Assembly: GCA_910579535.1 (NCBI GenBank)
Contig: CAJTUR010000002.1
Location: 124 to 64,123, forward strand
Direction of reading: 5' to 3'
DNA: 64,000 nt
Source of the DNA: an uncultured Bacilli bacterium
GTDB taxonomy: Bacteria > Bacillota_I > Bacilli_A > RF39 > UBA660
The notes below the pieces were generated by a model. That model had not been told where the DNA came from, did not search any database, and was given only the letters and a program-made list of their open reading frames with translations. This document shows, one piece after another, positions 14,154 through 35,653 of the stretch. The position numbers were made by a program, and so were the translations under genes. Each line of letters opens with the position of its first letter. The first letter of the stretch is position 1.

Positions 14154-15371
14154 TTATACCTCTATTTCTTCTTCGTCTTTGATTAAATAAACATTCTCTA
14201 AGATTTGTTGTAGTTCTTTGGCATTTGTCGTGTGTATGGGAATGACTTCTTTGGCTTTAAGTTTATTTAATAAAGCGATGGTTTCAATACTAGCATGACC
14301 TGATGTATGTAAGTTTATTTTATCATAAATTTCATAATTTTTTATTTTTTCTAAGAACTCTTTCATTTCTTCTTTTTCTTGGTACCCTTCCCACATGGAG
14401 TATAGAAGAACCGCATTCGTAATTTTCTTTTTGGCGTAGAGTTTTTCTATGTCTTCTAACATGGAAGTTTTTACAAGTAGTGTATATTTTTTGTTTTCAT
14501 AGGCTTCCTTTTTGCTGTATTTTTTAAAGGGTTCGATGTACATTTTTTTAAATTCTTTCTGTTTCTTTTTATATTTTGTCGGAATCCAAACGTAAACATT
14601 AGAAAAATTTTGAGGATTGGGAATTTTGTTGTTTTGTAGATGAGTAGCGATATTCGCGGTGAATAAGTCTTCGATAAAGTTTTTGTTCGTTTTTCGACTT
14701 GCTTTATAAATGGTTGTGATACGGTCGATATTGGTAGACGCCTGTAAAATAAACACTTGGTCATATTTTTTAAATATTTCAGTCGCTTCTAGGGTTAGTT
14801 CTTCTTCGGTTTTACTTTTTTCATTCTTTCTTCCTAAGGTTGTTCCTTCTGTTATGATTAGGTCAACAGTTCCTATTTCTTTGATTGCTTTTAAAAAAAG
14901 AGTGCCTTTTCTTCCATGATTTCGGAAGTCCCCCGTGTGCAAGATTCGTTTGTTTTCAGCTTCGATTAAAAACATAGCTGCATTATAGGAAGAGTGATCG
15001 ACTAAAAATGGAGTGATCGTGATGTCTTTAATGGTTATGGGTTTATGAAAGTTAAAGTGTAAGGTTTGTTTTTTGGGGTATTTTTTAGAGGTGAATTCAT
15101 TTAATAGATGATAGATTTTTTCTGAAATTTCTTCAACATAAATGGGAATATCTTCTAAGATATTGTGGATAAGTCCAATGTGATCACCATGGCTGTGGGT
15201 AATGAAGACGGCATCATAAGCGGGAGTTCCTTTGGTTAATCCTTCAATTTCAAAGTCCTTTTCTTCGTCAAGGTCACTTCCAAAATCGATGATAATTTTG
15301 GTGTTTTCCGTTTTGATTTCAGTGATACAGCCTCCTATTTGGTCGGTTCCTTTCCAAATTTTCACTTTCAT
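14154..15371 (-). CDS. beta-CASP metallo-beta-lactamase-fold nuclease (RNase J/CPSF-like)
   Basis: HSHGDHIG (HxHxDH), HTGDFRNHG, LIITEGT and LHTSGHAS motifs. Its start overlaps the upstream stop (ATGA at 15368-15371). Confidence 0.7.
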   Translation of the reverse strand: MKVKIWKGTDQIGGCITEIKTENTKIIIDFGSDLDEEKDFEIEGLTKGTPAYDAVFITHSHGDHIGLIHNILEDIPIYVEEISEKIYHLLNEFTSKKYPKKQTLHFNFHKPITIKDITITPFLVDHSSYNAAMFLIEAENKRILHTGDFRNHGRKGTLFLKAIKEIGTVDLIITEGTTLGRKNEKSKTEEELTLEATEIFKKYDQVFILQASTNIDRITTIYKASRKTNKNFIEDLFTANIATHLQNNKIPNPQNFSNVYVWIPTKYKKKQKEFKKMYIEPFKKYSKKEAYENKKYTLLVKTSMLEDIEKLYAKKKITNAVLLYSMWEGYQEKEEMKEFLEKIKNYEIYDKINLHTSGHASIETIALLNKLKAKEVIPIHTTNAKELQQILENVYLIKDEEEIEV

Positions 15372-17440
15372 AAAACATCTCCTATTTTACTTTCTAATAG
15401 TGTTTTCAATTTTAGTTGTTCTGTTAATTTTGTTTCAGTTCTTAATGCTTGTTCTATTTCTTCCCTAGTTTTATGAGGATTTATTTCGTTTTGTTTAAAG
15501 TAAGTAGAATAAAAAATTTCAGGGTAATCTATTTTTAGTTCGGCAAGTCTTAAAAACATTACGCTATAAGATAAGAGATGCCCTTTCGGGAAAAGGTACT
15601 TTATTTTGCCAATGGAGTCGATTAACCATTCAGGCATCTTCTTTTCTTGCATTAATTTTTTATATTCTTCCCAATTCTCCTTTTTTAATCTTCCAAAACT
15701 GATGTCTTCCATTATTTTTAAGGCATCCTTTCTTTCAAATTGATAGTTTAATAAGGTTGCTAATAAGTCTTCTCTTGAAGAAATGGTGTCTTTTAACTCA
15801 CAAATTTTCTTTTCAAGCAATTCTTGAGCGTTTTCATACCAAGTGTCTGTACCATGAAAAAGCCCATAGAGTTTTATTAAGTCTTCTTGAGAGTAAAGTT
15901 TTAAAGAGGGATTCTTTTTTTCTATAAAGTCTAATAAAAATTCATGAAAGCCTAGTATTCCAAATGGATAAGTAATTTCTTCTTTAGTTATTTTTAATAC
16001 TTTGGGACTATTAAATAAAGAAATGGTACGATTGTCGATGACTAATTCGTGAATGTCTTCTTGAATTTGGTTTTGAATTTCTTCTAATAAGGTTAGTAAC
16101 GAGTGTTCTAGGATGCCAAAACTGGTGATTTTTAAGTTTTCTGTTGGAATTTGAATGATTTTTTTATTTCCTATTATTTTAAAGGGAAGAAAAGATTGGT
16201 CATTTTCTTTTGGGAAGATGTAGTTTCGGCCCGCATGGATTCCTTCGGTCATTTTTACTCCAACGATTTTTAAGGCTAAGGCTTCTTTTTCTTCATTTTT
16301 TAATGTGAGGTTAAATTTTAGGCAATAGTCTTCAACTTTTTTTAAGGCTTCTTGTGGAGAATAAACTTTTTCAGTTCTTAAATAATAAATGTTGTAGTTT
16401 TCTTCTAAGGTGTTTAGGATTTCTTCTCTTTCATAAGCAAAGTTTATATTGATATCTGGCTTTTTATCAAAGTGACTTCCATAAAATATTTCAGGGGCTA
16501 AGTTTTTTTCTATGGGATTAAATTCGGTGATGTTTAATAAGTAGGCAATAAATGAGGAAGCGACTGCTCCTCTTGAAGAGGATAACTCACTTTTTGCACC
16601 TTGCATAATTTCTGCCCATATGAGATAAATGCTTGCGTTATGCTGGGCGAAAATACTTTTTAGTTCGAGCTTTATTCTTTCTAGGACTTCCAAAGGAATA
16701 TTTTTACCATATTTTTCTTGAACTTTTTTTTCTATTAAGGTTTTTAATTTTTCCTCTGCTTTCTCTATCTGTGGTTCTTTAGGTTCTTCAAGAGTTATTT
16801 TTTCTATCTGATTTATTAATGTCTTTTGGTTTTCAATAAAAATTTCATGTTTGATTGGTTCATCAAGATAAGAAAATTCTTCCCAAAGTTCTTCTTTTGT
16901 TTTTAAGTGAAAGTCTTTTAAATGTTCCATTTTTTGGTTCATTAGAATGGCCCAGGCTAATTTGTCTTCTTTTTTTAGGTAACGGACTTCATTTAGGATT
17001 AAAACTTTTTTGTTTTGTTTTTTCGCGGAGTCGAGGATTTTTAAAACTTGTTCTTTCTTCGTTGTGCTAGGAATTCCAATATAATCATAATAAAAATCCA
17101 GTGCGTTTGGTACTTCTTGGATTAAGATAGTGACGACGTTTGGGCATCCTTTTAAATTTTCGAGGGTTATTTCCTTTAATGAAAGTAGTTTAAATAATTC
17201 TTTTATCCCCTGGTTGTTTTTGGCAACGACAATATAGGAAAGTGATTCTTTAGTGGTTATTTCCATGCCATACATGAAGTTTTTGTTTTGTTCTTTAGTT
17301 AATAAATTTACTTGATAAAAATCGGAGATATCTTCTTTATTGGCTAAAATAAAGTTTTTTTCTGTTTCCATTAACTCTTTTATCTCTATTAAACTCTCTT
17401 TATTTGTTTTGGTGTGGACCCAATGAAGGATTTCATTCAT
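15368..17440 (-). CDS. Truncated PolC/DnaE-family DNA polymerase III alpha-like protein, predicted catalytically inactive
   Basis: Colinear with the PolC polymerase core. SSRGAVASSFIAYLLNITEFNPIE matches GSRGSVGSSFVA..TEVNP, and PDININF matches PDIDLNF. GVKMTEGIHAGRNYIFP matches GVKRTTGQHPGG, and FGILEH matches LDILGH. LFHGTDTWYENAQELL matches LSHGTDVWLGNAQELI, and IKYLFPKGHLLSY matches IKYMFPKAHAAAY. At 690 aa it is too short to contain the PolC N-terminal, OB and 3'-5' exonuclease regions. Confidence 0.75.
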   Translation of the reverse strand: MNEILHWVHTKTNKESLIEIKELMETEKNFILANKEDISDFYQVNLLTKEQNKNFMYGMEITTKESLSYIVVAKNNQGIKELFKLLSLKEITLENLKGCPNVVTILIQEVPNALDFYYDYIGIPSTTKKEQVLKILDSAKKQNKKVLILNEVRYLKKEDKLAWAILMNQKMEHLKDFHLKTKEELWEEFSYLDEPIKHEIFIENQKTLINQIEKITLEEPKEPQIEKAEEKLKTLIEKKVQEKYGKNIPLEVLERIKLELKSIFAQHNASIYLIWAEIMQGAKSELSSSRGAVASSFIAYLLNITEFNPIEKNLAPEIFYGSHFDKKPDININFAYEREEILNTLEENYNIYYLRTEKVYSPQEALKKVEDYCLKFNLTLKNEEKEALALKIVGVKMTEGIHAGRNYIFPKENDQSFLPFKIIGNKKIIQIPTENLKITSFGILEHSLLTLLEEIQNQIQEDIHELVIDNRTISLFNSPKVLKITKEEITYPFGILGFHEFLLDFIEKKNPSLKLYSQEDLIKLYGLFHGTDTWYENAQELLEKKICELKDTISSREDLLATLLNYQFERKDALKIMEDISFGRLKKENWEEYKKLMQEKKMPEWLIDSIGKIKYLFPKGHLLSYSVMFLRLAELKIDYPEIFYSTYFKQNEINPHKTREEIEQALRTETKLTEQLKLKTLLESKIGDVL

Positions 17441-17954
17441 AATATTTTTTTACCTCGCTTTCGTATAAAATTAAATCAATATTGATGTCGTGATTTTTTA
17501 CAAAGTCCCTAATCATGTTTTTTAACATGGGTCCTACTTCTTCATGCGTAAAGCCATATTCTCCTGTTCCAATACTTGGGAGTAAGATGTTTTTGTAGGA
17601 TTTTACACCCAATTCATCCAATAGGTTTTGATAAGTTATTTTTAGAATTTCTAAAGGATTTTTATAGTCCCAAACACGAGGGCCTTGAACAAAAAGAATG
17701 TCCATATTTAAGTTAAATCCAGGAGTGATTCGTATTTCTCCGACTTTCATTTCATTGGCGTTACTGTCATACGTGATATGATATTTTTCGCTTGTGTAGG
17801 CTTCTAGTACTTGGACGCCTGCTTTTTTAAATATGGCACCACTTACCCCCATCCCCATACGCATAGCGGGGTTGGTTGGGTTTACAATACAATCATGATT
17901 TTTTAAGATTTCATCAGTGGTGATGTCACCGATTAAGATGTTCATTTTGCCCAT
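17433..17954 (-). CDS. Macro-domain protein (ADP-ribose binding/hydrolysing fold)
   Basis: LIGDITTDE, DCIVNPTN, GMGVSGAIFKKAG and LLPSIGTGEYGF motifs. There is an 8-nt overlap with the downstream gene. Confidence 0.8.
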   Translation of the reverse strand: MGKMNILIGDITTDEILKNHDCIVNPTNPAMRMGMGVSGAIFKKAGVQVLEAYTSEKYHITYDSNANEMKVGEIRITPGFNLNMDILFVQGPRVWDYKNPLEILKITYQNLLDELGVKSYKNILLPSIGTGEYGFTHEEVGPMLKNMIRDFVKNHDINIDLILYESEVKKYYE

Positions 17955-22689: not shown

Positions 22690-23349
22690 TTATCTTTTAA
22701 TTATGAATTCTAATAGAAATTCCTTTAAATGCTCTAATATATTTTTTTCTAAATCTGTTTCTAAATAATCTGTATTTTCTTTAATATCAAGAAATTCTAA
22801 AACAAATGGATCTTTTACTAAATCTTTACTTGATTCTAAAATTTGACCTTTCTCTGCAAGTTCTAAGATTTTTTCTTTATTAGTAGATAAGGCTAATCTT
22901 TCATATAATAGAGAACCGATTTGCCTCCCAAGTTCCCTAACACTCCATTTAGTATTTATACATTCATTGAATTAAAAATTCCTTTTAGTTTCTTCCTCTA
23001 TCTTTATTAATTCCAAATAATGTGACCAACTTAATTGCGACGACACTGTTGTCGCAATTGGAAAATAAATATAGAATTTTCTCATTCTCTCTAAATTTCT
23101 TTTAGAAAATCCTTTGCCAAATTCATTCGTTAATTTTTGTGATAGTTTCTCCAAAACAGCATCACCATAACTTGCTCTTTCATCTCCCTGTTGGATTTCC
23201 ATAATTGCCTCGCCAATATTCCAATAAAGCTTAGGCATTTCCGTATTTACAGCACTATATACTTTATTTCTACTATTAATAACTAATTCTTTTATATTAT
23301 CAAATATAGTATTAATTTCATTATCATTTTTAATTAATTCATTGTCCAT
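22690..23349 (-). pseudogene. DUF1016 (YhcG-like PDDEXK nuclease) pseudogene with an in-frame stop and a 3' truncation
   Basis: The N-terminal 125 aa parallel the intact paralog at 55435-56451. My translation continues in the same frame through TAA at 22972-22974 (NF*FNECINTKWSVRELGRQIGSLLYERLALS...EFLLE). It then ends before the nuclease core. Confidence 0.75.
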
Positions 23350-28088: not shown

Positions 28089-28145
28089 AAACTTTTTACT
28101 CCTCTTAAGATTTCTTTTATTATACTATTAATTATAAATAATTCA

Positions 28146-30659
28146 CTAAATATTTTCATTTTTTATGGACTCAATAATATTGGTATTTTTTATTTTTTTA
28201 ACACTGTACCTCATCACTATTAAAATGATAACTAAAACACTTAATGTTGCAAGTATTAGGTATTTTGTAGAAAAAAGCATGATTAGTGCATTTTTTTTGC
28301 TATTTAATTTCGAAACTTCTATTAGAAGATAAATTAGAGTTAAAGAAATCGGTAGGCCTATCATTAACGTTTTAATTATTAAAAAGAAACTTTCGAGTTG
28401 AATCATTTTGTTTAAATTTTTCTGACTCATTCCTAGACTTCTTAAAATCGAAAATTCCATTTTTCTTAGGTTGATGTTTGAACTTAGGGTATTAAACATA
28501 CTTAAAATACTTATTAATGCTATAAATAAAAGAATAAAGTAAAGGAGACCTTTTATAACAAGGTAAAGTAAATAGATTTCGTAATTTTCTAGTGCTCGAT
28601 TTTCATATTGAATATGATTTGAGGCGTATTTCTTTACAATTTGATTTATTTCATCGTCTAATTTTTTAAATTTTCGACTATTTATTTCTATTTTCCAATA
28701 TTTCTTTAAATAGTCTTCATACGTTTCATTGGTGATACTACTAAAATTTTTGGTATTTTTACTAATAAAGTTGGTGACTAGATAATTAAATTGTTTTAAG
28801 TCTACAACTAATGTCAGTGTATTAAATTTGTTTAAGTAATTCTTATTGGTTAAGTATAGATTTTCTAAAGTTAAATACGGCTCATGTGTAATATACTGAG
28901 TTGTATTTTCTTGGTCCTGGATTTCTATTTCACAAATTTTTATTCTTTCCAGATTGTCTTTAAAGGCTTCAATTGTTTCGCTTTCATTATTTTTTTCAAT
29001 TTCTTTTAAGTTATACAGAATCATTCGGTCGTCTTTTAATCCTAATTCTTTTTTATATTTTTGATAATTTTCTTCATCTAAACCTACTAAAGAAAGAGTA
29101 TGATAATGATTGTTTTGAGTTAAATACTCTGAGTTAAGAAATTCTTCTTCCGCTTGAAAATAGAGAAAAGCTATTTTTGATTCTACATAGTCATCCATTA
29201 ATTTTATATTTTTAATTTCTTCAATGATTTTTTGATTGTCTTTTTCCTCATTATCAAATAAAGTGATGTCTATATCAAAAGAATGATGAAAGGTGTTTTT
29301 GGTTTGTTCTAAAAAATAATTTATAAAAGTAGAGCCAACGATAAATAAAACAAAGCTTATGGTTAGTGAGGTGGTAATGAGCAAGAATTTATTACTGTTT
29401 CTTTTAATGTTTTTATAAGCCAGTTCTCCGATAGCTCCACTTATTTTTTTTATAAGGGGATAACTAAATTTTTTTATTTTTAGATTGGTTTCGGTATTTC
29501 TGATTGTTTGAATGGGTGGAATATGACTTGCTGTTTTGGCGGGTTTTCTAACGGATAGAAAAATGGTTAGGATGATAAATAAAACGGAGAAAATGAGAAA
29601 AGAGATTTCTAAATTTAATTTAAATGGAAGCGGTAATATTGTTTTTAATGTTTGATTTATAAATAAAAGAATGAGTTCCATTAGCCCTAAGCTTAATCCA
29701 AAACCAATTATGATTCCTAAGGATCCTACTAAGCTAGCTTCATAAAGGAGCATTTTATAAATCTGTTTTTTTGTGGCTCCTATACATTTTAGTCTTCCTA
29801 GTTCCTTTTTTCTTTCTATTAGGGAAATTTCAAATGAATTGTAAATGATTAAAAAGCAAAAAACACTCATAATAGATAGAACAATCCCTAAATAGAAATA
29901 AATACGAAATTGATCTAATTTGTTTTGATACGCTCCATAAGCCACTAATAAGCTCGTATTTATGTTGGTATTTTTAAAAGATTCACTTTTGTTTTTCACT
30001 TCACGTTCTAAATTTAACTTAGTAGCGGTCTTCTCAATTTTATCATAAATATTAAAATAACTTTTATAGGTAATAAAAAAATAAGTATGAGCGTTAGATT
30101 GATCGATGAACGCTTTTGTGAAGGCTACTGGTTTATAAACGCTTTTTAACGTATCATAATGGTCTTCTTGAATTAATTTATTCTCGTTATAAATTCCAAC
30201 TATTTTATAGTTATGAATCCTTTCTTCAAGATCAAGATTCAATTCTTCTGCTAGATTGTTTGATATTAGGATTTCATTATTATTTTGAGGCTCACTTCCT
30301 TTTATTAGGGTTACATATTCTTTTAGCTCTTCATTGTAGGTAAAAAGGTTTAAAATGGTGTCTTCGTTATTGTTTAATTTAATGGGAATTTCTTCTTTTT
30401 TCTGGGTGCATTTAATTGATTTTATCTTTTTGTCTTCTTGTAAAATTTTTATAGATTGATAGTCTAAATCTTCAAATTGAACATGGAAATCGCCGCTACT
30501 TTTTAAGGCTTCTGTGATGTTTTGTTTTCTTATTGTAGAGGCACCTATACCAATAGAGAATAACAACATCGATGTTAAAATGATACTCAATAAAGTCATT
30601 TTGGTTCTTTTTTTATTTAACTTTAATTGTTTATTGGTTAGTGTTATCAATGTTTTCAT
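28146..30659 (-). CDS. FtsX/MacB-type ABC transporter permease (two FtsX domains)
   Basis: 837 aa with TM clusters flanking large extracytoplasmic regions. Contains LKCIGATKKQI and LRSLGMSQKNL FtsX-type motifs. Confidence 0.75.
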   Translation of the reverse strand: MKTLITLTNKQLKLNKKRTKMTLLSIILTSMLLFSIGIGASTIRKQNITEALKSSGDFHVQFEDLDYQSIKILQEDKKIKSIKCTQKKEEIPIKLNNNEDTILNLFTYNEELKEYVTLIKGSEPQNNNEILISNNLAEELNLDLEERIHNYKIVGIYNENKLIQEDHYDTLKSVYKPVAFTKAFIDQSNAHTYFFITYKSYFNIYDKIEKTATKLNLEREVKNKSESFKNTNINTSLLVAYGAYQNKLDQFRIYFYLGIVLSIMSVFCFLIIYNSFEISLIERKKELGRLKCIGATKKQIYKMLLYEASLVGSLGIIIGFGLSLGLMELILLFINQTLKTILPLPFKLNLEISFLIFSVLFIILTIFLSVRKPAKTASHIPPIQTIRNTETNLKIKKFSYPLIKKISGAIGELAYKNIKRNSNKFLLITTSLTISFVLFIVGSTFINYFLEQTKNTFHHSFDIDITLFDNEEKDNQKIIEEIKNIKLMDDYVESKIAFLYFQAEEEFLNSEYLTQNNHYHTLSLVGLDEENYQKYKKELGLKDDRMILYNLKEIEKNNESETIEAFKDNLERIKICEIEIQDQENTTQYITHEPYLTLENLYLTNKNYLNKFNTLTLVVDLKQFNYLVTNFISKNTKNFSSITNETYEDYLKKYWKIEINSRKFKKLDDEINQIVKKYASNHIQYENRALENYEIYLLYLVIKGLLYFILLFIALISILSMFNTLSSNINLRKMEFSILRSLGMSQKNLNKMIQLESFFLIIKTLMIGLPISLTLIYLLIEVSKLNSKKNALIMLFSTKYLILATLSVLVIILIVMRYSVKKIKNTNIIESIKNENI

Positions 30660-30712
30660 TATAATACTCTTTTCTTTATTTATTATAATTGATTTTTGTT
30701 CTAAATTCTATT

Positions 30713-30740
30713 AAAAAAGAAATCATTTTTTTTGATTTCC
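30713..30740 (-). terminator. Hairpin + U-run downstream of the RT gene
   Basis: The minus strand reads GGAAAUCA-AAAAAAA-UGAUUUC followed by UUUUUU. Confidence 0.45.
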
Positions 30741-30745
30741 TTCTT

Positions 30746-31738
30746 TTATTCTCGATTCTTTTTTAGAATTTCTAAATATTGATTTTGGTATTTTTTTAAA
30801 ACTAAGTCTTCTTTTCCTCGAACCATAGCTATAAAGTTCAATCTTCCTTCTATTACTTTTTTCAATTCCTTAATCAGTTTATTTTTATGTATATTTTGAC
30901 AATCATATTTTTCATCTTTTTTAAAATAATTTAAAGCGGTCACATAAAGCCCCTCTTTTTCACAACGATTCAGTAATGCTCTTAATTTTTTGATGTAAAT
31001 TTTTTTTACGTTTACTTTTTCATTAACAATTAAACCCGTCACTTCTTTTCTTTCCCGTTGCCAACTATAATTGGTTTTGGTTTCATTGATGGTAAAGCCA
31101 CTTCTTTCGATTCGTTTTCGTAATTCTTGACCAAGTATAATTTCGTTGTCTTGATTTCTTTTGACAATTTTTTCAGAAAAAGGGGTTCGACTCGATAAAG
31201 TGATATCATCCGCGTATCTTGTATAGTGAAATTGATACTGTTCACCTAAACGAAGTATTTTCTTATCTAATGAATAACACACAATATTTGAAAGACTGGG
31301 TGATGCTGGTGATCCTTGAGGGAGTGCATTGTGAAAACATGAAAGGTTCGCCAGAATGGTTGCGACTTCTTTTGGTAAATTAAATGGCTCAGTCATAAAT
31401 ATGCCTCGAACACGTCCAAAATGAATGGAGGGAAAGAAATTTTTTAAGTCAATATTTAAAATGTATCCCGCTTTACTATGAATTATAGCATTATCCACAA
31501 TACTTTTTCCTTTGATAAAGCCATATTGACATTCTAAAAAAGTATATTTTTTATCAATATACTCTTTTATTTTTTCTTGTACTTTTTTTAGATTCCAATC
31601 AGGTGATGCAATAGTACGATACCCGCCACTTCGTTTTGGCACTTTAAAGGTATGGTATTTACTTTTGGTTAATGCTTCATTAAGTAATTCCTCATCAATA
31701 TCTAAAATATAACTAACATAATTTTTAGGATTTTTCAT
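30746..31738 (-). CDS. Retron-type reverse transcriptase
   Basis: RT motifs YRTIASP, NIDLKNFFPSI, LPQGSPASPSLSN and YTRYADDITLSS. The retron-characteristic VDNAIIH (NAxxH) and RKEVTGLIVNEK (VTG) are also present. 330 aa. Confidence 0.85.
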   Translation of the reverse strand: MKNPKNYVSYILDIDEELLNEALTKSKYHTFKVPKRSGGYRTIASPDWNLKKVQEKIKEYIDKKYTFLECQYGFIKGKSIVDNAIIHSKAGYILNIDLKNFFPSIHFGRVRGIFMTEPFNLPKEVATILANLSCFHNALPQGSPASPSLSNIVCYSLDKKILRLGEQYQFHYTRYADDITLSSRTPFSEKIVKRNQDNEIILGQELRKRIERSGFTINETKTNYSWQRERKEVTGLIVNEKVNVKKIYIKKLRALLNRCEKEGLYVTALNYFKKDEKYDCQNIHKNKLIKELKKVIEGRLNFIAMVRGKEDLVLKKYQNQYLEILKKNRE

Positions 31739-31863
31739 ACTAATTCCTCGAATTCTAACATTATTGGTAAACCCGTAAGAGGTTTTACATATCGTAAGAT
31801 ATGTATTGTTTATACATTTTAATTGTCACTGCGAAACGCTCGTGATAGGCAATTCTTATTTCA
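31739..31863 (-). ncRNA. Candidate retron msr/msd non-coding RNA region (boundaries unknown)
   Basis: 125-nt spacer directly 5' of the RT start, packed with hairpins on the minus strand. These are UCAC-GAGCGUUUCGCA-GUGA, AUGUAU-AAACA-AUACAU, AUAUC-UUAC-GAUAU and AAACC-UCUUACG-GGUUU. I could not identify a convincing a1/a2 pair. Confidence 0.35.
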
Positions 31864-32598
31864 TTAGTAATTTATAAAGTTCTCTTTTTGAGGATTATAA
31901 TCTAAGTACACGGTATCCATACCACCATAACGGTTTTTAGCAATGATGATTTCTAAAATGTTATTTTTATTTTCACTCGAATAGTAATATTTACGATATA
32001 AGAATAAGACAATGTCTGAGTTACTTTCTAAATTACCGCTATTTTTTAAATCCATTAGTAAGGGCCTACTGTTTTCTCTATGTTCTACATTTCTAGAAAT
32101 TTGAGATAATAGAAAGACGATTAATTTTTTCTGATTAGCAAGAGCTCTTATTTTATCTAATACTTCATTATAGGTATCGATAGACGAAGAGCTTTTCTGA
32201 CTACTTTTTAATAATTGTATGTAATCGATGATAACGAATTTTATTCCATTTTCGTTAATCAATTGTTCTAGTTCTTCTACCGTAAAGCAATCGTCTGAAA
32301 GATAGAGATTATAATTCTTTTTAGTGAGTTCAGACATTGTTTCTTTCATTAAGTTTTCATTTTTTTGAATTTCTGAAAATTTTTCTCCTTTTGAAAGGGT
32401 GGCTAATTTTAGAGCACTTTTTTCTTTACTCATTTCTAAATTTACATATAGTGTTGGAACATTATAATTGTCCATTAAACTTAATAGTATATTATTCATA
32501 AAATTACTTTTTCCCATACCAGGCCTTGCTCCAATAGTTATAATAGTACTTTCATTGATTCCATTTAATGCTTTATCTAATGGTTTTAAACCTAACAA
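31864..32598 (-). CDS. Stand-alone DnaB-C-terminal-domain (RecA-fold) ATPase, motifs intact
   Basis: Walker A GARPGMGKSNF, Walker B FVIIDYIQLL, LLSQISRNVE and AKNRYGG. It lacks the DnaB N-terminal domain. The start codon is uncertain: TTG at 32598, or an in-frame ATC at 32658 behind a strong SD. Confidence 0.75.
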   Translation of the reverse strand: MLGLKPLDKALNGINESTIITIGARPGMGKSNFMNNILLSLMDNYNVPTLYVNLEMSKEKSALKLATLSKGEKFSEIQKNENLMKETMSELTKKNYNLYLSDDCFTVEELEQLINENGIKFVIIDYIQLLKSSQKSSSSIDTYNEVLDKIRALANQKKLIVFLLSQISRNVEHRENSRPLLMDLKNSGNLESNSDIVLFLYRKYYYSSENKNNILEIIIAKNRYGGMDTVYLDYNPQKENFINY

Positions 32599-32707
32599 AT
32601 ATTTTTTAACAAAACTTTCATTTAATTGAATGTCTGTTATTTTATTTATGGTTGCGATTTTTACTCACCTTCTTTCTTATGCGTACATAAGTACGAATTG
32701 TAATTTT

Positions 32708-32737
32708 ATTATACCTTTTCTATTTTAAATTTGTCAA
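32708..32737 (-). promoter_or_regulatory. Near-consensus sigma-A promoter driving the ATPase-spacer-RT module
   Basis: The minus strand has TTGACA (32737-32732), an 18-nt spacer and TATAAT (32713-32708). Confidence 0.65.
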
Positions 32738-32800
32738 TTTATTTTTTTATTATTTAGGTGTATAATTAAAATTTTTTTTATTTCTGATTTATGCTCTTCT

Positions 32801-35653
32801 TTAATTAAAAGGTCTTCCCATAATATGGTTTTTTATTTGAACATAATCGGTTGCATAGATTTTATCATCTTCGTTTATGTCTGCGGCAATTAAGTAAGGT
32901 CCTGATAAGAGTGATTTACCCATGATATGATTTTTAACTTTAACATAATCAGTGGCGTAGATTTGTCCATCTCCATTGACGTCTCCTTTTATAACAATAG
33001 TATAGGTATAATCTTGTTGATTAAAGGTTAGCGTAAACTTCATCCCTGTTGCAATGATTCCCTCATTTAGTTCCATATTCTGAGTGTTTTTAAAGTTTTT
33101 TAGAGTGACACCGTTTAGATTGTTTGCTTTATTGATGAAAGTTTTTATAGAGCTATTTAAAGTTATTCCTAAAACGTATTGTTCTTTTTTTCTTAAGCCA
33201 AGACGATTTAATACTCCTTCTTCGGTTAATCCACCTTTTTCTTCTATCGTAACTAAACTAGTTAAAAGAATGGTCCTATTGCCAACAGGGATTAGAACTT
33301 CTACCTTACTGGTTCCAGCTTTCATTCCTAGCAATTCATTGTTTTCATAATGAATTAAATCTGTTTTTTCTATAGAAACTTGATAGTTAAGAGTTTCATT
33401 TGGTGAGAGAACTAAGGGTAGTTTTTTCTTTTCATTTGTCACGAGTTGAAAGGTTTTAGGAAGAGAGAGACTCACGATTCCTTTTGCTAATGACGTTTCA
33501 TCTAAAAGATTTAAATCATGAAAGTTTTTGGCGTACCCGCCGACTCCTAAAAGGGTTTCATTTTCATTTAAGACATAATACACTTGTTTTGGAATTTGAT
33601 AGGTGCCATAAGTAATGGCTTGTAAACCAATAAAGCCTCCTTTATTTTTTTCACCCTTTACGGTACCTGTTGAAAAACTGTTTTCTATTTTAACGTTTTG
33701 ATTTAGACCAATAAAGCCTCCTACGTTTTTAGGTGCTGTCACTTCTAAAGTAGTCGAACAGTTTGTTATTAGGGTTTGATCGTTTCCATTACCAATCAAC
33801 CCTCCTACGGCGATTAAATCATTTAAGGCTTCTCCTTCTCGAGTCACTGATCCACTTTTTAAATGAATGTTGTTTAGGGTAATGTTTTCAGCTACGTTTG
33901 CTAAACCACCTAGATAGTTTTGTTTGTTTGAATAAGCCACTAGGTTCTCTATATTTAAATTTTCTATTTTTGTTGGTGTGCTAAAATGACCAATATTATT
34001 AAATAAACCTGAGCCATTTGTTTTTATGTTACGTAAGGTATGATTTTTTCCTTCTAAATTTCCTTCAAAGTTTAAATTAGAAAGCGTTGCGGTTTCTTTA
34101 AAATCTAAATCATTCTCAAGTTGATAATATTTATTTTTGGTGTCTAACCCCATGAGATATAAAAACGTTTTTTCATCTTTAATGAGATAAGGTTTTTCTT
34201 TTGACCCTTCCCCTTCAATGGTTGGTAAGAGGACGTTGAAAGTAATCGAATCGTTGGTTTCACTTGTCACTTCTATTTTTATTCCTGAGTTTTTCCCATT
34301 GGAATAAAAAAGGGTTTGATTATCAAAAGTAGTATTGGTTGCTATTTCATTTTTTCCCAAAACAGGTCTTTTCATGTTTAATGTTGCTTTTGATAATTCT
34401 CCTAGCCCACTCATCGCTTCGGTTTCATTAGGTCTAAAAATATAAACATGGTCTTCTTTGGGAGCATTTCCTAAATATTTGTAATTTTCATTTACACGAT
34501 ATACGATTAACCCACTTTCAAGTGCGGAATAAGACTCATAGGTGTTCATTTTGTCGTGGTATTCTACGATAAAGTATTCTTTTTCGTTTTCTCCGGTTGC
34601 AATTTTAATCGCTCTTAATTCGTCTTTATTTATAAATTTTGGTTTAGAAAGGGTTAAGTTCATTGTGGTTTTTGAAATTACAGGTATGGGGTTATGCCAA
34701 TTGGTTTCTTTTTGATAATCACTTATGAAATAAGTTAAAAAACTTTGAGGGTTGGAGCCAATAGCGTTTCCCATAATATCATAAAATCCTACTGGTTTTT
34801 CGTTAGGTGAACCGTATCGGTACAAATCTTTAAAGCCTAAGGTATGACCAAATTCATGAATAAGTGTTCCATAAGTACCACGGTTTAATGAAAACACACT
34901 TGCGGATTCTTTGTAATCTTCCGCATAGATTAAGTTATAAGCTCTTATTTTTTTTCCTAAAAAGGTTTGTGTTATTCCTTCACTATCTCGTTCATGAGCC
35001 CAAAGTAAATCTCCCCAACTGATGGTAGAGGGTAAATTTTTTTGACCTTCAATAACAAAAGAAATGGCGTCAATAAAATCATCTTGATTGGTATCTAATT
35101 CATTTCCATTTATTCCATAAGAAGCGCTTTCTTTTTCTAAATAAGCCATTACACGATTGATTAGTTCATTTTCTCTTTTTAAAGCTTCCGTTTTATCTTT
35201 GTAACCTATTTTGTTTTGTTCTGTATATTTTAAGTAATAACCAATGGGCTCTACATCCTTAAAGGCTACCACTTGATTGTTTTTTTTAGGTAAAATTTCA
35301 GTTGTAATGGATAAACTCCCATAACTTTCACGTTCAAAGTATTTTTTGAAAGAAGGAACTCCAATTATTCCATTAACGGTAGTCATTTCTACTGGTGTGT
35401 CGCTATTGTATAATTTATAAGCATTTTCTACACTTTCTATATCATCAATATGATTTAAGACGTTTGAATCGCTATCACTAAATTTAATGAATACTGCCAA
35501 TTGTTTTATTTTTCGAGGGTTGGGGTCTATTTTAGCTAAGGCCAGTTCTTGGTCTGATTTTATAGTGGCTTTACTTACCTTAAAAGAACTACTTGAACAG
35601 ATGAAAAGAACTAGAAAGATGAAAGCTACTATTTTTTTATTTCTTTTTTTCAT
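32801..35653 (-). CDS. Secreted M6-family (InhA-like) metalloprotease with repeat/Ig-like regions and a C-terminal dockerin-like module
   Basis: Signal peptide and HEFGHTLG zinc motif. GGLIG/GGFIG (GLUG-like) repeats. The C-terminus GDVNGDGQIYATDYVKVKNHIMG...ADINEDDKIYATDYVQIKNHIMG forms a duplicated dockerin-type Ca-binding repeat. Confidence 0.75.
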   Translation of the reverse strand: MKKRNKKIVAFIFLVLFICSSSSFKVSKATIKSDQELALAKIDPNPRKIKQLAVFIKFSDSDSNVLNHIDDIESVENAYKLYNSDTPVEMTTVNGIIGVPSFKKYFERESYGSLSITTEILPKKNNQVVAFKDVEPIGYYLKYTEQNKIGYKDKTEALKRENELINRVMAYLEKESASYGINGNELDTNQDDFIDAISFVIEGQKNLPSTISWGDLLWAHERDSEGITQTFLGKKIRAYNLIYAEDYKESASVFSLNRGTYGTLIHEFGHTLGFKDLYRYGSPNEKPVGFYDIMGNAIGSNPQSFLTYFISDYQKETNWHNPIPVISKTTMNLTLSKPKFINKDELRAIKIATGENEKEYFIVEYHDKMNTYESYSALESGLIVYRVNENYKYLGNAPKEDHVYIFRPNETEAMSGLGELSKATLNMKRPVLGKNEIATNTTFDNQTLFYSNGKNSGIKIEVTSETNDSITFNVLLPTIEGEGSKEKPYLIKDEKTFLYLMGLDTKNKYYQLENDLDFKETATLSNLNFEGNLEGKNHTLRNIKTNGSGLFNNIGHFSTPTKIENLNIENLVAYSNKQNYLGGLANVAENITLNNIHLKSGSVTREGEALNDLIAVGGLIGNGNDQTLITNCSTTLEVTAPKNVGGFIGLNQNVKIENSFSTGTVKGEKNKGGFIGLQAITYGTYQIPKQVYYVLNENETLLGVGGYAKNFHDLNLLDETSLAKGIVSLSLPKTFQLVTNEKKKLPLVLSPNETLNYQVSIEKTDLIHYENNELLGMKAGTSKVEVLIPVGNRTILLTSLVTIEEKGGLTEEGVLNRLGLRKKEQYVLGITLNSSIKTFINKANNLNGVTLKNFKNTQNMELNEGIIATGMKFTLTFNQQDYTYTIVIKGDVNGDGQIYATDYVKVKNHIMGKSLLSGPYLIAADINEDDKIYATDYVQIKNHIMGRPFN

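Follow-up and report, generated by a model that had tools for sequence, protein, structure and literature searches.

Introduction

The partners known for the reverse transcriptases (RTs) of retrons are nucleases, enzymes that degrade NAD or nucleotides, membrane proteins and proteases. In the survey of Mestre et al. 2020 (PMC7736814), the general plan of the retron non-coding RNA (ncRNA) consists of terminal inverted repeats (a1 and a2), a G after a1, and the msr and msd hairpins; type XI is given there as being without a recognisable ncRNA, and no helicase or RecA-type partner appears, the words “helicase”, “RecA” and “KaiC” being absent from the text. More recently, a computational preprint (N. 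Toro, May 2026; bioRxiv 10.64898/2026.05.14.725207) has defined “TXI_noncan_h”, a DnaB_C-associated, protease-less, type XI-like lineage of 29 loci from hosts belonging to the Bacillota and Bacteroidota, in which separate DnaB_C proteins are found in 69% of the loci and a compact RNA flanked by a1/a2 lies 22–104 bp upstream of the RT, with a structure of ~23 bp, 13 of them covarying. It is with this lineage that the locus described here is compared: a module of two genes and an intervening RNA at 30746..32737, on the minus strand of a 64,000-nucleotide (nt) stretch from an uncultured Bacilli bacterium (contig CAJTUR010000002.1; the whole of this stretch is hereafter called the window).

Architecture of the module

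We hold with high confidence that the module is a system of three parts, a retron-type RT, an ncRNA and a DnaB_C protein, and we place this tripartite retron in the protease-less, DnaB_C-associated, type XI-like lineage. Along the minus strand a promoter is followed by the gene of an ATPase that corresponds to the C-terminal domain (CTD) of DnaB, by a spacer of 125 nt (31739..31863) and by the gene of a retron-type RT of 330 amino acids (aa); a single promoter would transcribe the ATPase, an msr/msd-like RNA of ~106 nt and the RT, in that order. The parts are the following:

32708..32737, minus strand: predicted sigma-70-type promoter of the ATPase gene, TTGACA-18-TATAAT, 12/12 match
32659..32672, minus strand: Shine-Dalgarno region GAAGGTGAG plus a 5-nt spacer, before the ATC codon, read directly
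31864..32658, minus strand: stand-alone DnaB CTD (RecA-fold) ATPase, probably 264 aa from ATC (Pfam DnaB_C, family alignment)
31750..31855, minus strand: candidate msr/msd-like ncRNA, ~106 nt, from a1 through a2 (conservation, covariation)
30746..31738, minus strand: retron-type RT, 330 aa, with no fused effector domain (RVT_1 1.7e-25, PADLOC)

The promoter match at 32737..32708, already read as TTGACA-18-TATAAT in the original prediction made from this sequence, agrees with the two hexamers in every position. Weaker matches (at least 9/12) occur at chance level in a window of 28% GC (12 found vs 14.4 expected), and both hexamers are kept in the relative L081, where the surrounding bases have diverged.

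The reverse transcriptase

The RT carries the RVT_1 domain only. Its matches among the retron RT models of PADLOC extend from 1e-113 to 1e-50, with RT-TIR_XII (1.6e-113), RT-Protease_XI (2.3e-112) and RT-Toprim_I-C (1.7e-99) among them, and they cover only the RT part of these fusion models, ending at around position 310–330 of 475–570. In other words, the 330-aa protein ends after the RT/thumb region, and the trypsin-like protease fused in type XI, the TIR of type XII and the Toprim of type I-C are all missing from it. In NCBIfam, the retron models give values of 1e-98 to 1e-60, all of which fall short of the curated cut-offs for want of the fused effector domains, vs 1e-16 for the group II intron RT and 6e-11 for Drt2. 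The classification that had been proposed as a check, in which the RT might have fallen among group II intron, abortive infection (Abi) or defence-associated RT (DRT) clades, therefore places it with the retrons (1e-113 to 1e-99 vs 1e-16 and 6e-11).

The two retron hallmarks that had been recognised in this protein from the letters alone, NAxxH and VTG, are invariant in the 20 sequences of the family, as N83-A84-x-x-H87 (in the form DNAxxH) and V233-T-G235, and so is Y175-A-D-D178. A database search gave 19 further RT clusters of 62–94% identity and 330–356 aa, followed by a gap down to RTs of ≤47%, which are mostly fused to a trypsin-like protease. With these 19 related clusters the family is monophyletic and sister to the large protease-fused (type XI) clade, in a neighbour-joining tree without bootstrap support.

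Two differences in length were seen among the family RTs. In L263 (2380-3993, protein P0061) the RT has a C-terminal extension of ~190 aa with no Pfam domain, and most of the other members end in an acidic/aromatic tail of 15–25 aa, which the RT of the window does not have.

The ATPase and its start codon

The partner protein had been described as bearing all the motifs of the DnaB CTD without the N-terminal domain, and profile searches agree: Pfam DnaB_C is matched over the whole profile (1e-50), with no N-terminal DnaB domain (PF00772). The architecture of replicative DnaB, PF00772 followed by the RecA-fold C-terminal domain, is thus reduced here to DnaB_C, and the protein reaches 173 bits vs the 385-bit cut-off of the replicative-DnaB equivalog. 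As judged from its sequence, it is not a replicative helicase. The solved structures of DnaB in the PDB align with it from around chain residue 176–188 onward (best 4NMN, 6.8e-37), and a model computed with AlphaFold2 from the family alignment (mean predicted local distance difference test, pLDDT, 82) resembles the C-terminal domains of DnaB with a Foldseek template-modelling (TM) score of 0.83; in this model, residues 1–16 are predicted to be unstructured, though M1, A2, K6 and I10 are conserved. Across 17 sequences, Walker A (GARPxMGK[T/S]), the H1a glutamate, Walker B (IDYIQL), SQxSR and the DNA-binding loop of H4 (DL..SGNLE..SD) are invariant or nearly so, while the arginine of KNRxG is replaced by lysine in three sequences of the alignment. 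This pattern points to a protein under selection that is probably active, ring-forming and dependent on single-stranded DNA (ssDNA), without the domain that forms the collar and binds primase.

The length of the protein calls for correction. It had been given as an intact ORF (open reading frame) of 244 aa, and an ORF of that length does exist from a TTG (31864..32598), but its homologues, of 260–266 aa, start with MAT(I/M)xK 20 codons upstream of this TTG, at a position where the ATG of the family is an ATC in the window (32658..32656, minus strand), five bases after GAAGGTGAG. This Shine-Dalgarno sequence is placed for ATC 32658 and not for TTG 32598, before which none was seen by eye. An in-frame stop three codons before the ATC leaves no coding space further upstream, and the frame stays open through the 20 codons that follow the ATC, 5 of which differ synonymously and 3 non-synonymously from those of L081. 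Since the homologues begin at this point, and since the window has there an ATC behind a good Shine-Dalgarno sequence, the product would probably be of 264 aa, not 244, from a rare ATC start. A sequencing slip does not account for the ATC, because the exact 244-aa form recurs on 109 contigs; other 244-aa variants are found on dozens more, vs 13 contigs for the ATG/264-aa forms, and the non-ATG form is the dominant one in this species cluster.

The RNA between the two genes

The spacers of the family share long invariant stretches, together with hairpins whose sequences differ and which nevertheless pair. RNAalifold recovers from them a closing stem of a1 with a2 (GAATT with AATTC) and three hairpins, H1, H2 and H3, the first of them as UCAC-GNGCGUUUCGC-A-GUGA. 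In the window, the element spans the region 12–117 nt upstream of the ATG of the RT and contains:

31851..31855, minus strand: a1 (GAATT), which pairs with a2 in a closing stem of 5 bp
31850, minus strand: invariant G directly after a1, by its position a candidate branching G
31826..31845, minus strand: hairpin H1, UCACGAGCGUUUCGCAGUGA, nearly invariant in sequence, candidate RT-recognition (msr) hairpin
31786..31805, minus strand: hairpin H2, 8 bp in the window (7–12 bp elsewhere), candidate msd; 8/12 aligned pairs change on both sides
31769..31785, minus strand: hairpin H3, 6 bp in the window, candidate msd; 5/7 aligned pairs change on both sides
31750..31754, minus strand: a2 (AATTC), which pairs with a1, immediately 5′ of the ribosome-binding site of the RT
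31745..31749, minus strand: ribosome-binding site of the RT, GAGGA

The spacer had been called structured, and of this description the length and the structure stand, the latter with strong covariation, whereas the folding of the single sequence is not better than that of its shuffles (z = -1.05); the case for an RNA structure rests for this reason on comparative evidence. MAFFT misaligned H3 and a2, so that no covariance model was built; in its place came a structural alignment, anchored on the loops and padded with N, of 13 distinct sequences. There, 15 of 37 pairs change on both sides, vs 6.8 +/- 1.5 in shuffles, none of which (0/500) reaches 15, and the covariation score is 0.273, vs 0.094 for shuffles and ≤0.053 for slid partners; as the arms of H2 and H3 were chosen for each sequence, their pairing is of 100% by construction, and what is informative is how varied the pair types are where the positions are anchored by the loops. 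In the outer pair of a1/a2, A-U takes the place of G-C in L260 and L001, while L256 has lost the pairing; the other four pairs are invariant.

The most characteristic part of the element is H1, whose motif TCACGNGCGNNNCGCAGTG is found once in each of the 28/28 loci of the family and in 0/238 other loci; the window has one copy, vs 0.03 expected. Rfam gave no match for the spacer RNA. In its layout the RNA appears to fit the general retron plan (PMC7736814), with H1 as the putative msr and H2/H3 as the putative msd. A long-range stem of ATTA with TAAT, which would extend a1/a2, was also considered and is not claimed, its signal being weak (81% of cells paired, one pair changing on both sides).

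Conservation and genomic context

Searches with the ATPase gave a family matching that of the RT, of 16 clusters with 45–94% identity, often on contigs equally long as those of the RT matches. In all 14 of the distinct loci fetched, DnaB_C, a spacer of 125–140 nt and the RT keep this order on one strand, amid unrelated flanks, so that the adjacency of ATPase and RT, proposed as a check, is seen to be conserved, and the pairwise distances of the two proteins correlate (Pearson r = 0.75, Mantel p ~2e-4). From the constancy of the order, the differences of the flanks and this correlation it follows that the two genes and their spacer form a conserved, mobile unit. The flanks, of which the first four listed here include neighbours of defence type, are:

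L256: LlaJI-type restriction genes
L263: SIR2
L258: PDDEXK_4
L264: Macro
L248-252 and L257: helix-turn-helix (HTH), DUF1810 and primase/DnaB_C-like genes
L083-88: serine recombinase, PolIII-alpha-like genes, SSB
L260: Cadherin-like and peptidase genes

The relatives come from a metagenome-assembled genome of uncultured Bacilli and from gut metagenomes, and the host would probably be a gut member of the Bacillota with low GC. A profile search of genome contigs with the ATPase returned almost only replicative DnaB genes and a single true relative, L001 (uncultured Bacilli); profile scans of viral and metagenome sequences with the RT returned only RTs of ≤45% identity, of other retron types; the H1 motif had no match in viral contigs, and phage and plasmid collections held no relative above ~42% identity.

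A conserved third protein was sought and rejected, for the 233-aa protein of the window and the HTH gene of L250 share the HTH domain only, the small ORFs upstream are not conserved across contexts, and DUF1810 follows the RT in one subclade only. In that subclade the DUF1810 gene begins ~20 nt past the stop of the RT (L248, L250-252 and L257, also L253), sometimes followed by a Macro gene, and could encode an additional component; the window has no such gene. In L257, a group II intron RT/maturase (RVT_1 + GIIM, 2991-4262) is encoded 1.7 kb upstream of the retron, next to fragments of transposases.

Possible function and alternative explanations

The module, of a rare type, would probably have an anti-phage role. 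In retron Eco2, the effector is caged by the msDNA (multicopy single-stranded DNA) and set free when a phage nuclease degrades the latter (PMC12916289), and because the RT of Eco2 is of a related type, a caging mechanism can be proposed by analogy for the present system, if only as a tentative and rather doubtful one: the msDNA would hold back a poison of replication. The RT would recognise the invariant H1, prime on the conserved G after a1 and copy H3 and H2 into a short msDNA. The natural ligand of a DnaB-CTD ATPase would be ssDNA, and the complex of RT and msDNA would bind the ring-forming ATPase by way of its ssDNA-binding channel and restrain it. Phage infection would degrade, modify or displace the msDNA, freeing the ATPase, which, without the N-terminal collar/primase-binding domain, would engage forks, ssDNA, the host helicase or its loader unproductively. 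The stall of replication, whether through unproductive loading, mixed rings with the host helicase or sequestration of the loader, would lead to abortive infection or growth arrest, and in the lineage of the window the weak ATC start would keep a dangerous partner scarce. Taken as a whole, the tripartite retron together with this mechanism seems to us, on balance, the probable explanation of the locus.

Several observations weigh against it. To the folding of the single spacer sequence and the pairing of H2 and H3 by construction, given above, must be added that the a1/a2 stem is of only 5 bp and that the long msd stem-loop of classical retrons is missing; that the ATPase has no nuclease, protease or other plainly toxic domain, its role as an effector being assumed; that genes of replication type adjoin the pair in about half of the distinct contexts; that the canonical start codon of the ATPase has been lost in the lineage of the window, and that some strains carry a split RT (P0178/P0179, two pieces of 140 and 178 aa that share their contigs), both of which could mean decay; and that msDNA, toxicity and defence are, for the members of this family, predictions only. 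The split RT would mean that some of the population is losing a functional retron.

Four rival readings were weighed against it. The shortness of a1/a2, the unusual compactness of the element, the want of a long msd hairpin and of a retron match in Rfam, and the position of a2, which abuts the ribosome-binding site of the RT, would all be understandable if the spacer RNA were a cis-regulatory leader for the translation of the RT, or a processing site, and the RT acted without msDNA like some DRT systems; but the inverted repeat, the G after a1, the conserved 5′ hairpin and the variable, structured 3′ hairpins fit the architecture of retron ncRNAs (PMC7736814), and NAxxH and VTG, both specific to retrons, are present in the RT; such a leader is therefore improbable. 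The lost ATG could, for its part, have switched off the ATPase in a copy that is now silenced and drifting towards a pseudogene, and the predominance of the 244-aa form (109 contigs vs 13 for the 264-aa forms), the split RT of some strains and the gene fragments nearby (SIR2, DUF1016_N) agree with this. However, both ORFs are of full length with all their catalytic motifs, the promoter and the ncRNA are intact, the 20 codons after the ATC remain in frame, with synonymous changes against L081 outnumbering non-synonymous ones (5 vs 3), table 11 admits ATC as a rare start, placed here behind a good Shine-Dalgarno sequence, and the form is widespread rather than sporadic; we consider a decaying copy to have little probability. 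Still less can be granted to the idea that RT, RNA and DnaB_C belong to the replication machinery of an integrated mobile element, serving for example in priming or helicase functions, and have nothing to do with immunity. In several loci the pair does lie among HTH repressor-like, serine recombinase, PolIII-alpha-like, primase/DnaA-like and second DnaB_C-like genes and SSB, often overlapping or abutting the gene upstream, yet it is free of such genes in the window, L256, L258, L260, L263 and L264, the DnaB_C-like genes next to it are no more than distant relatives and have no Walker A match, and the RT belongs with those of retrons and is accompanied by a retron-like RNA. Mobile elements, moreover, commonly carry defence cassettes.

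It is also conceivable, though unlikely, that the DnaB-CTD protein is a decoy or guard of the replisome, a sensor mimicking the surface of the host helicase, whose capture by a phage loader or hijacker would alter the complex of RT, msDNA and ATPase and so trigger the response. The ATPase is indeed closer to the CTDs of cellular replicative DnaB than to phage helicases (TIGR00665 1.2e-50 vs phage_DnaB 1.3e-39), the top Foldseek matches include DnaB with the lambda P loader and with DnaC, both of which contact the CTD, and the conserved, unstructured N-terminal peptide could be an interaction motif. Against this, the structural matches speak for a similar fold and not for conserved loader-binding residues, the trigger is hypothetical, and in a conserved two-gene unit without a separate effector the response would still need an executor. 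A broader form of the idea, in which a DnaB ring lacking the N-terminal domain is loaded on or gated by msDNA, mimics the host replicative helicase, and either senses phage loaders and hijackers or poisons forks once released, seems just as unlikely; if true, it would be the first retron to guard or target the replisome and the first immune effector to derive from the motor of a replicative helicase. The reading preferred here is still that of the tripartite retron. The bare motor domain of a replicative helicase offers no obvious route to killing or arrest of the cell, and to solve how the ATPase acts would reveal a new logic of effectors, such as replication poisoning or replisome mimicry. 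The type XI-like retrons, long without a recognised RNA, would gain an experimentally tractable cassette of three parts in <2 kb, with exact targets for mutation in G31850, H1, YADD, the lysine of Walker A and the ATC start.

The rest of the window

The module stands, as had been stated, between a permease gene of the FtsX type and a protease gene:

28146..30659: FtsX-like permease
32801..35653: Peptidase_M6/dockerin protein

This location had been taken to suggest an insertion. In favour of it, though indirectly, the position of the module relative to shared neighbour genes varies between loci, being upstream of the Cadherin-like/Peptidase_M6 pair in L260 and downstream of it in the window, but the GC content of the module equals that of the window (28.4% and 28.1%), and no empty site turned up, conspecific genomes not having been searched for one. 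From two contigs that are otherwise nearly identical, L081 and L082, the FtsX-like gene is for the most part missing (window 28135-30608); their identity to the window is of 98.3% over 39972..30608, the retron included, and of 84% beyond, a fall that suggests a recombination breakpoint.

A link had also been drawn between the ATPase and supposedly degenerate DnaB-like genes at 18–20 kb. This link finds no support, and the reading of those ORFs as degenerate DnaB genes is rejected, since they have no DnaB match even at E <= 5, nor any similarity to the DnaB_C-like genes adjacent to the retron in L250.

Other parts of the window recall the neighbourhoods of the retron elsewhere. A degenerate PolIII-alpha-like protein of 690 aa (15368..17440) adjoins a Macro-domain protein (17433..17954), and homologues of both are found directly beside the retron in other loci, Macro in L264 (53% identity) and the Pol-like protein in L083, L253 and L001. 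A truncated SIR2 ORF (42499..42861, 120 aa, without profile positions 1-58) and a gene of 234 aa (41646..42350), each ~10 kb from the retron of the window, are 66–67% identical to retron-flanking genes in L263 and L264. Since homologues of genes that elsewhere flank the retron are thus scattered through the window, this would be a variable region subject to rearrangement. A 125-aa DUF1016_N fragment (22972-23349), 39% identical to a full-length copy of 338 aa (55435-56451), is the remnant of a gene. The long ORFs are nearly all on the minus strand, and the whole 64-kb window has no tRNA genes and no Rfam match at gathering thresholds.

Comparison with known systems

With replicative DnaB (Aquifex 4NMN, Geobacillus 4ESV) the ATPase shares ~30–33% identity across the aligned structures, the fold, and the motifs H1, H1a, H2, H3 and H4; it differs in being without PF00772 and most of the linker, and in being found in a retron cassette and not in a replication operon. 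Among the retrons whose partner also includes an ATPase are types I-A and I-B (Ec78 with PtuAB, Eco8 with an OLD-like ATPase-Toprim), whose ATPases are of ABC type and are accompanied by HNH or Toprim nucleases, whereas in the window a RecA-fold ATPase of the DnaB family stands alone. The RT of Eco2/Ec67 (type I-C) is related to that of the window (PADLOC I-C 1.7e-99; NCBIfam retron_Ec67_fus 2.2e-93), but there the effector, a Toprim nuclease fused to the RT, cuts tRNA, while the window has as partner a ring ATPase of RecA fold, encoded separately and without a nuclease domain. The nearest relatives of the RT outside its own family are the canonical type XI retrons (PMC7736814), at 43–47% identity; in these, the RT is fused to a trypsin-like protease, a domain which the window lacks, having a separate ATPase gene.

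The original prediction had supposed that, if the DnaB-CTD partner belonged to no catalogued retron type, it would represent a new effector class. The retron effector models of PADLOC do not match the ATPase, which gave only a weak match to mad8 and one to Csm2, and the partner is missing, too, from Mestre et al. 2020; in this respect the search of known effector families bears out the prediction, but the type of partner has been described in the TXI_noncan_h preprint (bioRxiv 10.64898/2026.05.14.725207), so that the class is not new.

The module resembles this lineage in all the features that could be compared: a protease-less RT in a type XI-like clade, a stand-alone and adjacent DnaB_C gene, a compact a1/a2 RNA immediately upstream of the RT, and a host-associated origin in the Bacillota. 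Because all these testable features agree, it is filed here under TXI_noncan_h, as a putative member matched by the described features and not by sequence to the 29 loci. Three points set the two descriptions apart: (i) the RNA is a “double stem-loop” in the preprint, and in the present family it has three hairpins plus a1/a2; (ii) the ATC start belongs to the lineage of the window; (iii) and finally, the preprint places the neighbouring gene by genome coordinate, at +1 in 14 loci and at -1 in 5, a mixture that probably arises because offsets were taken by coordinate and not by strand, whereas a strand-aware reading finds the ATPase always upstream and the RNA in between, which clarifies the order of the cassette as ATPase, RNA and RT.

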